The notes under the pieces are model-generated. The model was not told where the DNA came from, made no database searches, and saw only the letters and a list, made by a program, of their open reading frames with translations. DNA of 64,000 nt, taken from sequence record OR844650; one strand, written 5' to 3'. Origin of the DNA: Escherichia phage ECO103 4-12-1. Positions within the stretch are counted from its first letter, which is position 1. Each line of letters starts with the position of its first letter. Of the stretch, positions 32,912 to 33,977 are shown piece after piece. Position numbers and translations under genes: made by a program.

Positions 32912-32948
32912 AGTATAAAAAAACCAAGTAACAAAACATTACTTGGTT
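32912..32948 (-). terminator. rho-independent terminator after the endonuclease gene (AACCAAGTAA/TTACTTGGTT hairpin, U-tract)
   Basis: directly downstream of the 32961 stop. Confidence 0.6.
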
Positions 32949-32960
32949 CATAAAAACTAT

Positions 32961-33917
32961 TCAATAATTTATATTTTTTGATATGAAGTCTTTTATAATT
33001 TTAATGTGGTCATCTGAATACTTTATTCTAAGTAAAGTAATATTATTATCATAACAATACTTATTCTTAATTTCATCATTTCGTTGTTGTTCAGCTAAAC
33101 CTTCTTCTCCACCGAAGTATTCTATTGGTTTGAAGTGTTGGATACCATCATATTCTATTAGTAGATTAAGTTCAGGAATATAAAAATCAAATGGTAAATG
33201 ATTGATGTTTTTACAACTATCAAATTTCTTTTCCATTTCAAACATTATATCACACGTTTTTAAAAAATTCTGAATTTCAATAACAGGTTTTGATTTTAGT
33301 TCTTGGTCTGAACAAACTGGACACCCTTGTTTTCTATGATAATGCTTAGTAGCTAGTACGGTGAATTCCCCATGTCTCTTACATAATGGTGTAATGGTTT
33401 CATACATGCCATTATATTTTGTATTAGAGTAATCATAATTATCCATGTGTATGAACTTACAATCTTCAAAGAACACATCTTCTGGAGTTCTCTTCTTTAA
33501 TCCATTTTGAATTTTGGCACATTCAGGGCAACCTTGTCCAGATAGATGATTACTAACTACTTGATTAAATTCACCATGACCTTTTTCTTTGCATATAATA
33601 GTAATCTTTTCTGAACGAATGTTAAAAAACACTTTTGAGTAATCATACTTATCACCATGAACTTCGGTAGCTTCAGTGAAGAATGACCCCAGAGATTTTT
33701 TAGACTTTCGTTCTTTCTTTGCAATATCAGAACAAACTGGACAACCTTGTTTTGCAGAAATGTGTTTATTAGGAACTACTGTGAAGTCACCGTGAATGTT
33801 ACACGTAACAGTTATTGGATGGTGTGCATTGACATATATTGTTTTATTGTATGTGTAAATACTACCATGAATATTCATTGATTTATCTATGAATTGTTGT
33901 TGTGTAATTTTAGCCAT
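32961..33917 (-). CDS. homing-endonuclease-like protein: three zinc-ribbon repeats plus C-terminal DUF559/Vsr-like PD-(D/E)xK nuclease domain
   Basis: three repeats ending GCPVCSD / GCPECAK / GCPVCSD; C-terminal FDFYIPELNLLIEYDGIQH; start ATG 33917 with GAGG SD (track start 33932 is GTG). Confidence 0.55.
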   Translation of the reverse strand: MAKITQQQFIDKSMNIHGSIYTYNKTIYVNAHHPITVTCNIHGDFTVVPNKHISAKQGCPVCSDIAKKERKSKKSLGSFFTEATEVHGDKYDYSKVFFNIRSEKITIICKEKGHGEFNQVVSNHLSGQGCPECAKIQNGLKKRTPEDVFFEDCKFIHMDNYDYSNTKYNGMYETITPLCKRHGEFTVLATKHYHRKQGCPVCSDQELKSKPVIEIQNFLKTCDIMFEMEKKFDSCKNINHLPFDFYIPELNLLIEYDGIQHFKPIEYFGGEEGLAEQQRNDEIKNKYCYDNNITLLRIKYSDDHIKIIKDFISKNINY

Positions 33918-33977
33918 TCTTGTGTACCTCACAAAACTTTTTAATATACATTATTTACAGAAACAGGACAAAACGCT

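Follow-up and report, generated by a model that had tools for sequence, protein, structure and literature searches.

A probable free-standing Vsr-like homing endonuclease gene between a structured RNA gene and a resolvase gene of a RaK2-like jumbo phage

Intronless homing is known from the seg/mob-type systems of phage T4, in which SegG is paired with gene 32, SegF with gene 56 and MobE with nrdB. Free-standing endonucleases of this sort cut hundreds of base pairs from their own genes, and flanking DNA is co-converted (PMC2988022). The prototype EDxHD homing endonuclease is I-Bth0305I (PDB 3R3P; PMC3239194), whose authors also placed the Hef-type endonucleases in the Vsr-like family; our comparison with Hef is by description. 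In addition, the DUF723/DUF4379 type of repeat array is known from the T5orf172 homing endonucleases of phages (PMC10448857).

We analyzed a locus within a 64,000-nucleotide stretch of DNA from Escherichia phage ECO103 4-12-1 (OR844650), which we call the window. The phage that bears the locus is a giant E. coli/Salmonella phage of the RaK2-like jumbo group. The locus probably contains a free-standing Vsr-like (EDxHD) homing endonuclease gene that sits in the gap between a divergent pair of genes, one for a structured RNA and one for an endonuclease VII (endo VII) homologue, and that has spread by intronless homing.

Layout of the locus and the endonuclease gene

Table 1. Features of the locus, numbered from the first nucleotide of the window.
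Feature	Position	Strand	Details
Intrinsic terminator ending the hub/orf69 unit	32132..32153	+	hairpin + T-run; left edge of ORF-free region; terminator scan
Conserved structured noncoding RNA gene, core	32372..32831	-	ends at hairpin 32401-32384 + T-run
Predicted sigma-70-type promoter of RNA gene	32839..32867	-	extended -10 TGCTATAAT 32847-32839; putative -35 TGGGAA 32867-32862
Probable homing-endonuclease cassette	32900..33976		1,077 bp, versus 58 bp in phage 121Q; BLASTN versus 121Q and SD-15
Cassette's own intrinsic terminator	32921..32949	-	13-bp stem + T-run; terminator scan
Probable free-standing homing endonuclease gene	32961..33917	-	318 aa, ATG start
C-terminal Vsr-like (EDxHD-type) nuclease domain	32964..33302	-	residues 206-318
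N-terminal array, three CHCC treble-clef zinc-finger repeats (DUF723/DUF4379)	33303..33917	-	residues 1-205
Late-promoter-like motif GTAAATAC	33854..33861	+	antisense in first endonuclease codons; motif scan
Divergent intergenic region, endonuclease/endo VII	33918..33977		60 bp
Core endonuclease VII (T4 gp49) homologue, zinc-less variant	33978..34469	+	163 aa; PHROG 423 E=3.5e-32
Endo VII codons 1-107, co-conversion tract	33978..34298	+	co-inherited with endonuclease gene; sliding identity
Bidirectional terminator hairpin between convergent endo VII and gp46-like genes	34458..34479

The longest minus-strand reading of the endonuclease gene begins at a GTG (32961..33932, 323 aa). The exact 323-aa protein is absent from the record, and we therefore rejected this start in favor of the ATG at 33917, which has a GAGG Shine-Dalgarno sequence just ahead of it. 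The resulting 318-aa protein is on record, without any difference, in 40 blocks of the assembly collection. Its match to PHROG 559 (E=1e-66) and its more than 7,600 homologues rule out a chance ORF, and its AlphaFold model has a pLDDT of 90.4. According to the junction alignment, the left end of the cassette lies directly after ...AAGTACTTA. The cassette's terminator begins 12 nt past the endonuclease stop codon and is common to both Asteriusvirus alleles, the window type and the type found at locus L006.

The 60 bp between the two divergent protein-coding genes have a sequence that bears no relation to the 58 bp found in 121Q. Their minus strand carries GTAAATAA 41 nt upstream of the endonuclease ATG, as well as a sigma-70-like TTGTCC-17-TATATT. 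On the plus strand, GTAAATAC precedes the endo VII ATG by 123 nt. The L006 and L011 alleles likewise keep a late-promoter-like motif at -123, and Munch, a distant phage, keeps one at -58; elsewhere, late-type motifs are found as TATAAATAC at the hub gene and as nTAAATAC upstream of endo VII in relatives. Judged by these motifs, GTAAATAC may serve endo VII as a replacement promoter, and the cassette seems to come with late-type promoter motifs both for itself and for its neighbor.

A first reading, made from the sequence only, had named this protein the second repeat-array endonuclease of the window, and our results agree. The first, a T5orf172 version, is encoded at 21587..22510, and the three repeats of the present protein match both DUF723 (29.5 bits) and DUF4379 (25.6 bits) above the cut-off. 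Each repeat has an invariant C..H..C..C set (C39/H42/C59/C62, C109/H114/C130/C133 and C179/H182/C199/C202). The N-terminal region lacks a NUMOD/HTH segment and consists of zinc-finger repeats instead; presumably, this array is the DNA-recognition module.

The C-terminal catalytic domain has a Vsr-like nuclease fold in which D244, E255, G258, Q260, H261, D281 and K284 are invariant. Four of these residues (D244, E255, H261 and D281, invariant in 20 homologues) are candidates for the EDxHD motif and putative equivalents of the I-Bth0305I residues. The spacing from D to H, 17 residues, is equal to that between D196 and H213 of I-Bth0305I. Identity to I-Bth0305I is only 18%. When all PDB sequences were searched with phmmer and with hmmsearch using domain profiles, the endonuclease retrieved neither 3R3P nor Vsr; the sole PDB match of the nuclease-domain profile was AbaSI (E 0.24), and single-sequence phmmer searches of the PDB with the endonuclease and the endo VII homologue returned nothing meaningful. 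The Pfam DUF559 score, 14.9 bits, is below the cut-off of 20.6. An indirect family link is provided by the Muenster homologue, which its depositors annotated as EDxHD by using HHpred (3R3P_A, 97% probability). The cassette protein is predicted to have nuclease activity. As an architecture, the combination of zinc-finger array and Vsr-like nuclease is very common, with more than 7,600 proteins in sequence databases, and our literature search found no characterized member.

Presence, absence and mosaic structure of the cassette

The cassette is accessory and polymorphic. It is missing from 121Q/PBECO4-type genomes and from SD phages that are 99.7% identical, so that close relatives differ in its presence at one fixed intergenic site. 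The deletions that SD-1 and SD-15 show in this block may be genuine or may stem from the assembly of a mixed population of phages with and without the cassette. All 26 near-full-length phage records that cover the flanks lack it, and no deposited phage was found to encode the endonuclease at 60% identity or more. However, the identical 318-aa protein is encoded on many contigs of ~345-350 kb, and it adjoins endo VII in all six places examined. At least three cassette alleles occupy this one site. The second is 85% identical to that of the window, and the third, at locus L011, is a chimera with its breakpoint near the junction of array and nuclease. At the same site, Munch carries a 47%-identical endonuclease homologue. 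The DNA search also gave a match in fENko-Kae01.

Other relatives have different insertions around endo VII: a protein with zinc repeats and a T5orf172 nuclease in RaK2, a DNA methyltransferase in a Yersinia phage, and RCC1-like and lectin-like ORFs in further genomes. A RaK2 match at 306,971 was rejected as the same locus, being another paralogue that lies between NAD-metabolism genes.

Identity along the locus changes abruptly within endo VII. Compared with 121Q, the flanks are 98-100% identical and codons 108-163 of endo VII are 100% identical, whereas codons 1-107 are only 73.8% identical; that is, 84 of 321 positions differ in the 5' part and none of 168 differ downstream (Fisher p=1e-17). 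The comparison with L018 gives the opposite result, with 0 of 321 and 15 of 168 differences (Fisher p=7e-8). In L018 and L019, gp46 is 85-89% identical to that of the window and the cassette 99.7-99.8% identical, and endo VII is 100% identical over codons 1-107 and 91% identical thereafter. The endonuclease gene itself differs at 2 of 957 nt, in a genomic background that is 10-15% diverged. Because the pattern seen with 121Q is reversed in this diverged background, we regard it as the signature of intronless homing with co-conversion, and the near identity of the cassette and 321 bp of endo VII points to a very recent transfer of exactly that block. The mosaic tract is tied to the gene: one physical unit, which includes the 5' 321 bp of endo VII, moves together with the homing endonuclease gene. 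On the right, the tract ends within the invariant IHHTALT codons of endo VII.

The same data can be read in another way. The cassette might be an old resident that was lost by deletion in the 121Q/PBECO4 lineage, and the mosaic might be a product of ordinary homologous recombination when diverged phages infect the same cell; no nuclease-driven homing would then occur, and the endonuclease gene could have lost its activity or been domesticated. Long residence is implied by the three diverged alleles that share one site. The Munch homologue, which this explanation can claim along with the fENko-Kae01 match, likewise allows long residence followed by loss. Both right-hand crossovers fall in those codons that are best conserved, in which recombination of any kind would resolve, and because both sampled crossovers lie in the same ~20 bp, they may reflect one ancestral event plus ordinary recombination. 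However, this explanation does not easily accommodate so nearly identical a block in a diverged background, nor an ORF that is intact and whose protein is identical across many contigs. Moreover, the "empty" site of 121Q has no deletion scar, and its 58 bp are unrelated sequence with a canonical late promoter. We therefore consider old residence unlikely.

The distribution of the cassette also bears on whether the nuclease serves the phage. It could be a weapon in inter-phage competition or marker exclusion, or have an anti-satellite or anti-defense function, such that the gene is kept for destroying the resolvase gene of competitors or for promoting local recombination. T2 is subject to marker exclusion by T4 seg/mob genes (PMC2988022), SegB reportedly promotes amplification of anti-defense loci (PMC13096335), and the CapR domain, which is related to DUF723/DUF4379, acts in phage-satellite conflicts (PMC10448857). 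The likely target here is, in addition, a gene needed for packaging. However, the cultured Asteriusvirus isolates in the phage collection are all without the cassette, and the locus gives no sign of a defense context. Such a role appears improbable as the main explanation, and it would be compatible with a homing mechanism and not exclusive of it.

The RNA gene and the endonuclease VII homologue

The sequence-only reading described the other flank of the cassette as ORF-free and structured, and this description is borne out. The region 32123-32899 has no ORF of at least 60 aa, no tRNA and no Rfam match, and its structure is evident from covariation. RNAalifold applied to 15 divergent loci predicts 79 pairs, 49 of which have compensatory changes. 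In the alignment, 97.6% of cells are paired, versus 33-43% with slid partners, and values as high as those observed arose in 0 of 500 shuffles. The gene is assigned to the minus strand because of conserved G-U pairs, and nhmmer places its core at 32823-32372 of the window. Since TGnTATAAT is kept in 15 of 15 aligned loci and in the paralogous copy in 121Q, we predict that a host-type extended -10 promoter drives the RNA gene, with transcription starting at about 32831. The core is about 450 nt, and the RNA is possibly about 650 nt. The terminator hairpin of the adjacent hub/orf69 unit is kept with compensatory changes in 13 relatives.

Searches of the whole window with ARAGORN detected no tRNA or tmRNA, and searches with Rfam at the gathering threshold gave no match to the RNA gene. 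With the Rfam threshold relaxed to E<=1 over 32050-34000, only two chance-level sRNA matches appeared, both on the orf69 terminator. The noncoding RNAs 001, 002 and 004 from PA5oct RNA-seq have no homology to our nhmmer profile, with which the RNA was also undetected at the RaK2 endo VII locus, and we found nothing relevant in the literature on noncoding RNAs of 121Q/RaK2-like phages. A reading of the ORF-free region as an origin or pac site is disfavored by the covariation and by the strand-specific G-U pairs; the region may have an additional DNA-level role besides encoding the RNA.

RaK2-like phages have two copies of the RNA gene per genome, and one of them probably stays divergent to endo VII even where the lineages are far apart. 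Probably, these paralogues represent an undescribed family of large structured RNAs; the endonuclease would then have colonized the promoter gap between one of them and endo VII.

The divergent endo VII-like gene has exactly the coordinates first assigned to it. Its catalytic residues D39/H40/H42/R49/N57/E60 are invariant across 31 sequences. T4 endonuclease VII reportedly binds a structural zinc through C23, C26, C58 and C61. The observation that the T4 N-terminal cysteines are lacking was correct and can be extended, since all four ligands, not just the N-terminal pair, are replaced (by I25, I28, Q53 and V56). Across the RaK2-like clade, no zinc-ligand cysteines occur at the equivalent positions, save an occasional C at the last, and the protein apparently folds without structural zinc throughout this clade.

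The Pfam model PF02945 scores the endo VII homologue at 13.7 bits, below the gathering cut-off of 23.6, and matches 24 of 31 relatives at E<=1 (best, 7.3e-6). The family profile matches T4 Endo VII (1e7d) with E=2.8e-6 over T4 residues 33-130. With the AlphaFold model (pLDDT 93.2), the only significant Foldseek matches were 1e7l, 1en7 and 2qnf (161-163 columns, TM 0.5-0.6). T4 gp49 (PDB 1EN7, 1E7L, 2QNC; 157 aa versus 163 aa) is collinear with the window protein (Foldseek E 1.4e-6, TM 0.6), and its D40/H41/H43/N62/E65 correspond to D39/H40/H42/N57/E60. Sequence identity is about 20%.

In principle, this protein could itself be a homing or restriction endonuclease of the F-CphI/DHHRN type and form a two-nuclease mobile unit with the cassette. 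Such a family of homing endonucleases, with the Endo VII catalytic motif, does exist (PMC6083498) and shares the His-Me finger residues D, H, H, R and N with the 163-aa protein, and the 5' two-thirds of endo VII do move with the cassette. Members of that family, however, carry the motif at the C terminus, and their genes are sporadic or intron-associated. The DHHRN motif of the window protein is N-terminal (residues 36-61 of 163), and the sequence and fold of this protein both align collinearly with T4 gp49 along the entire length, including the helical dimerization part, as in the resolvase clade (PMC6083498). Its gene, by gp46/gp47, was found in all of the RaK2-like loci that we examined, whether or not they have the cassette, and the 3' third of the gene remains with the resident genome. 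The idea of a two-nuclease unit is thus highly implausible. Based on the N-terminal motif, the collinearity and the fold match, we assign the protein as a core resolvase orthologue, predicted to be the ordinary junction resolvase of the phage.

Given the conserved order hub-orf69-[RNA]-endoVII-gp46 in RaK2-like loci, the initial proposal of a hotspot that accumulates selfish nucleases and a resolvase variant can be kept in part. The accessory cassette and the varied insertions of relatives fit it. Endo VII does not, because its retention in every relative marks it as core and not mobile, and neither does the ORF-free region, which is a conserved RNA gene and not accumulated selfish DNA. The synteny comparison proposed to learn whether all three elements are core gave a divided answer: endo VII and the RNA gene are conserved and the cassette is polymorphic.

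Intronless homing and related systems

Under intronless homing, which we favor, the enzyme in a mixed infection would use its three zinc-finger repeats to recognize, in a related phage, the allele that has no cassette. The Vsr-like domain would then cut this allele; the most probable place is inside the first ~320 bp of endo VII or immediately upstream of them. The break would be resected and repaired from the cassette-bearing genome, a process that would copy the nuclease gene together with the diverged, and presumably uncleavable, 5' part of endo VII. The exchange would resolve where well-conserved sequence is first reached, namely in the -10 region of the RNA gene on the left and in the IHHTALT codons on the right. 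The asymmetry around the presumed cut site is weak evidence for the position of the cut, because the very high conservation of the RNA gene could hide a conversion tract at the sharp left boundary. One possibility is that the enzyme targets a resolvase gene whose own product completes double-strand-break repair.

If this explanation is correct, each homing event overwrites the -35 region of the RNA gene and the catalytic half of the resolvase. The locus would be a clean, naturally occurring case of intronless homing in a jumbo phage; the block is mapped at either end to within about 20 bp, and half of an essential recombination gene would be exchanged between lineages as a passenger. Both alleles of the candidate target region are at hand for an array-plus-Vsr-like endonuclease; in 121Q, the stretch from the RNA promoter to endo VII codon 120 lies at ~326,000-326,700 of the record. 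The value of the endonuclease locus itself is modest but concrete. The resolvase clade of RaK2-like phages offers a directly testable case in which the Endo VII fold can apparently dispense with structural zinc. The behavior of the cassette appears to be ordinary mobile-DNA biology, and the adjoining RNA gene appears to be undescribed. As a strongly covarying RNA that is absent from Rfam and occurs in a well-cultured phage group, it is an accessible object for RNA biology and promises the larger pay-off.

Among known systems, the T5orf172 endonucleases of ICP1 and other phages (PMC10448857) have a "beads on a string" zinc-finger array like that of the cassette endonuclease. Domain shuffling between alleles, here represented by the L011 chimera, and an adjoining essential gene are also common to both, but their catalytic module is T5orf172/GIY-YIG-like and that of the cassette endonuclease is Vsr-like. 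The gene for I-Bth0305I lies in a group I intron of recA, and the enzyme has an N-terminal NUMOD/HTH region, whereas the cassette endonuclease is free-standing and has three CHCC repeats. The closest resemblance in setting is to Hef and the T4-related seg/mob genes. Like the cassette, they are intergenic between conserved genes, sporadic among close relatives and co-inherited with the flanking part of an essential neighbor. The cassette also appears to resemble the seg/mob type in supplying promoter signals displaced by the insertion. However, the seg/mob enzymes are of the GIY-YIG and HNH types and the cassette endonuclease is Vsr-like; and the present setting differs from that of Hef and seg/mob in having a RaK2-like jumbo phage as host and a resolvase gene as neighbor.

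The endonuclease cassette and its alleles

The phage is an Asteriusvirus, a jumbo myovirus of about 350 kb that resembles 121Q and PBECO4. Twenty-six phage records match window positions 31000-36700 at 86-98% identity, over only about 81% and in two pieces. In 121Q, a relative that lacks the cassette, only 58 bp separate the sequences that correspond to positions 31000-32899 and 33977-36700; the left cassette junction follows AAGTACTTA.

Features of the locus and related elements (window positions unless another record is named)
Feature	Position	Strand	Remark
Tail/baseplate protein		minus	First in local gene order
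Baseplate hub	31077-31913	plus	
69-aa ORF (orf69)		plus	3' of hub
ORF-free stretch			Between orf69 and endonuclease ORF
Endonuclease ORF	32961-33932	minus	Between ORF-free stretch and endo VII-like ORF
Late-promoter-like GTAAATAC	33854-33861	plus	Antisense in first endonuclease codons, pointing at endo VII
Late-promoter-like GTAAATAA	33952-33959	minus	Endonuclease 5' end, back to back with motif at 33854-33861
Endo VII-like ORF		plus	After endonuclease ORF
gp46-like SbcC/Rad50, gp47-like SbcD, gp55-like late sigma factor		minus	Beyond endo VII
Second RNA copy	L125 2246-2857 (121Q record 192745-193356)	plus	Outside the 64-kb window
Lineage-specific inserts	L025 2438-3244; L027 4488-5708; L032 4479-5213; L030 1795-2328; L037 2655-3269		Flanking RNA/endo VII genes

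The endonuclease ORF proposed by the sequence-only reading is real. Its exact 318-aa protein, starting at the ATG at 33917, is on record in 40 blocks of the assembly collection. An exact-protein look-up there returned no record of a GTG-started, 323-aa version. The protein carries three repeats, each with invariant Cys/His/Cys/Cys positions, that score above threshold for DUF723 and DUF4379 (treble-clef zinc finger). Its family is very large (>7,600 proteins), and matches occur in 1,028 phage records, among them proteins encoded in introns as well as some annotated 'Hef-like'. The protein is best read as a free-standing homing endonuclease with a zinc-finger array and a predicted nuclease of the EDxHD type.

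The other repeat-array endonuclease in the window (21587-22510, minus strand) has zinc-finger repeats of the same kind and is 32% identical to this protein over residues 10-140, but its repeats are fused to a T5orf172/GIY-YIG-like domain in place of the Vsr-like domain. Two genes downstream lies a stand-alone 108-aa T5orf172/MUG113 ORF (20865-21191, minus strand). These two ORFs illustrate module swapping between nuclease types.

Compared segment by segment with 121Q, the locus is a clear mosaic: identity is 96-100% for hub, orf69, gp46 and the ORF-free region, about 75% for the 5' part of endo VII and 98% for its 3' part. Of the 321 nt in endo VII codons 1-107, 84 differ (22 amino acids altered, 42 codons changed only synonymously); of the 168 nt in codons 108-163, none does (Fisher p=1e-17). 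Contigs L018 and L019 show the converse. Their gp46 is just 85-89% identical to the window, and they carry an endonuclease gene that differs from the window gene at 2 of 957 nt; their endo VII differs at 0 of 321 nt in codons 1-107 and at 15 of 168 nt in codons 108-163 (p=7e-8). Both crossovers, in 121Q and in L018/L019, fall within the same ~20 bp, encoding an invariant IHHTALT motif, and the transferred unit is therefore placed from about 32849/32900 to 34300. Comparison of these alleles indicates that the cassette is mobile and that half of endo VII moves along with it.

At this site, loci L006-L010 hold a second cassette allele, 85% identical, paired with an endo VII allele of its own. The endonuclease gene of a further locus, L011 (1261-2217), is a chimera of the two: the N-terminal ~190 residues, together with the endo VII gene, are those of the L006 allele, and the C-terminal ~130 residues and downstream DNA are those of the window allele, with complete identity in both cases. 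The breakpoint, near residue 190 (window ~33350), therefore records a recombination between the two alleles, close to where the zinc-finger array meets the nuclease domain. The distant phage Munch has a 47%-identical endonuclease homologue at the same position. Linkage is complete in this sample: the cassette is present in all eight loci with the window-type endo VII allele and all six with the P0002 allele, and 121Q-type alleles are without it. All cassette-bearing genomes are assemblies or metagenomes rather than cultured isolates.

The closest deposited relatives, four Salmonella 'SD' phages, lack the cassette; they match window positions 31000-36700 over 74-75%, with flanks 99.6-99.8% identical. 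Their deletions differ from one another and are confined to the block that moves with the cassette. SD-15 (SD-15_S21, L002 3360-3551) has a 47-bp deletion and a 121Q-type endo VII that carries a frameshift of 2 bp and is missing ~150 bp within the gene. In SD-1 (SD-1_S14, L127 ~2026-2060) all sequence is gone from the RNA -10 region as far as about codon 113. Cleavage scars or loss of the target could account for such deletions, as could assembly artefacts from mixed populations; if the deletions are real, these phages can dispense with endo VII.

A structured RNA gene in the ORF-free region

The ORF-free region was aligned with 14 loci whose flanking proteins are just 47-60% identical, and it exhibits long invariant blocks with evident compensatory changes. 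For the minus strand, RNAalifold predicts 79 pairs, of which 49 show double compensatory changes. Sliding the partners by 1-3 columns lowers the share of paired cells from 97.6% to 33-43% and the number of pairs changed on both sides from 49 to 8-13. None of 500 shuffles reaches any of five measures. Assignment to the minus strand follows from conserved G-U pairs, since these would be A-C if the plus strand were read. On this covariation, the region is a conserved structured RNA gene (32160-32870, core 32372-32831); it lies outside the cassette and defines the insertion site. An extra helix, GUUGC/GCAAC (~32442-32446 with ~32475-32479), also covaries outside the RNAalifold structure.

An extended -10 element, TGnTATAAT (32847-32839), is kept in all loci and in the paralogue, and a hairpin followed by a T-run (32401-32378) looks like the RNA terminator. 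The cassette is inserted ~30 bp upstream of the -35 region of the RNA gene; in the window-type allele the sequence from 32849 on has been exchanged, so that the -35 region there differs from that of 121Q. The sequence GACG-N(14-20)-ATTGTAT recurs two to three times in and beside the gene (32320-32440 and relatives; columns 210-330 and 495-520 of alignment A5), with one ATACAAT copy inverted at ~32552. These repeats could be long-range pairing partners or protein-binding sites.

At least eight viral contigs, complete or nearly so, each hold two copies of a 21-nt core motif of the RNA. The second 121Q copy occupies a 612-bp gap between genes 415 and 416 (both hypothetical), ~135 kb from the first, and paralogous copies are also found in L100, L104, L110, L112, L113, L114, L122 and L124. 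The second copy has its own TGaTATAAT promoter. With no terminator inside it, this copy extends into the CCCCTGCGGGGGG hairpin (window ~32340-32360), which suggests that the transcript may reach a greater length, ~650 nt. Searched with an nhmmer profile, all RaK2-like loci but that of RaK2 have the RNA upstream of endo VII. In RaK2 none was detected between orf69 and endo VII, and in L036, a locus whose endo VII is only 47% identical, the match is weak. No Rfam 15 family matches the gene, ncRNAs 001, 002 and 004 from PA5oct RNA-seq have no homology to it, and we found no paper describing it. This neighbouring RNA merits its own follow-up.

The endo VII homologue and inserts around it

RaK2-like phages of Escherichia, Klebsiella, Salmonella, Cronobacter, Erwinia, Xanthomonas and Vibrio encode 113 homologues (~160 aa) of the 163-aa endo VII-like protein. 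A profile of 31 homologues matches T4 endonuclease VII (E=2.8e-6, T4 residues 33-130), and the AlphaFold model (pLDDT 93.2) has only T4 Endo VII entries, aligned end to end, as significant PDB matches. The four zinc ligands of T4 Endo VII, C23, C26, C58 and C61, correspond to I25, I28, Q53 and V56; the sequence-only reading noted the missing N-terminal cysteine cluster, and in fact both cysteine pairs are absent, clade-wide. D39, H40, H42, R49, N57 and E60 are invariant and correspond to T4 D40, H41, H43, R, N62 and E65; 'DHHRN' is the Endo VII catalytic set (PMC6083498). Resolvases carry the motif N-terminally and align over their full length, and homing endonucleases carry it C-terminally (PMC6083498), which places this protein in the resolvase clade. 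The gene is a core resolvase homologue without a zinc site, present in every RaK2-like locus compared, with the order hub-orf69-gap-endoVII-gp46 kept.

In RaK2 the gap from orf69 to endo VII is merely 180 bp, and a 343-aa zinc-repeat+T5orf172 nuclease separates endo VII from gp46 (L029 3821-5542); a different nuclease family has thus colonised the opposite side of the same neighbourhood. An N6/N4 DNA methyltransferase adjoins orf69 in Yersinia phage fHe-Yen9-04, and inserts in uncultured relatives comprise an RCC1-like ORF, a lectin-like (concanavalin/lectin-like) ORF and two ORFs without a family match.

The ORF, repeats and flanks described in the sequence-only reading are confirmed, and its interpretation is partly right. 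The locus is a hotspot in part, given the three endonuclease alleles and the other inserts around endo VII. Conservation of all three elements had been named as the sign of core status that would speak against a hotspot, however, and two of them, endo VII and the RNA gene, are core.

Putative expression signals and proposed homing

The hub gene has TATAAATAC upstream, at 31035. Relatives carry nTAAATAC ~30 nt upstream of endo VII (CTATAAATA in 121Q), and this late-promoter-like motif is missing from the spacer in cassette-bearing alleles. GTAAATAC is found 123 nt before the endo VII ATG in three alleles (window, L006, L011) and 58 nt before it in Munch, and the minus strand carries nTAAATA(A/T) 41-47 nt ahead of the endonuclease ATG. 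Both window motifs are kept in other cassette alleles. From motifs alone, the cassette appears to carry expression signals, as in T4, where cassettes replace displaced promoters (PMC2988022).

We infer the nuclease activity, target site, immunity and promoters. The enzyme would cut the allele that lacks the cassette, either within the first ~320 bp of endo VII or a short way upstream of them, and the linked, 26%-diverged endo VII allele would be resistant. The cut position is the weakest step, because the RNA gene at the sharp left boundary is too conserved and a conversion tract there would be invisible. Its placement derives from the likeness of the cassette and endo VII mosaic to the free-standing seg/mob endonucleases of T4, which are intergenic and cut a neighbouring conserved gene hundreds of bp off, the break being resected and repaired from the donor genome so that flanking markers are co-converted (PMC2988022).
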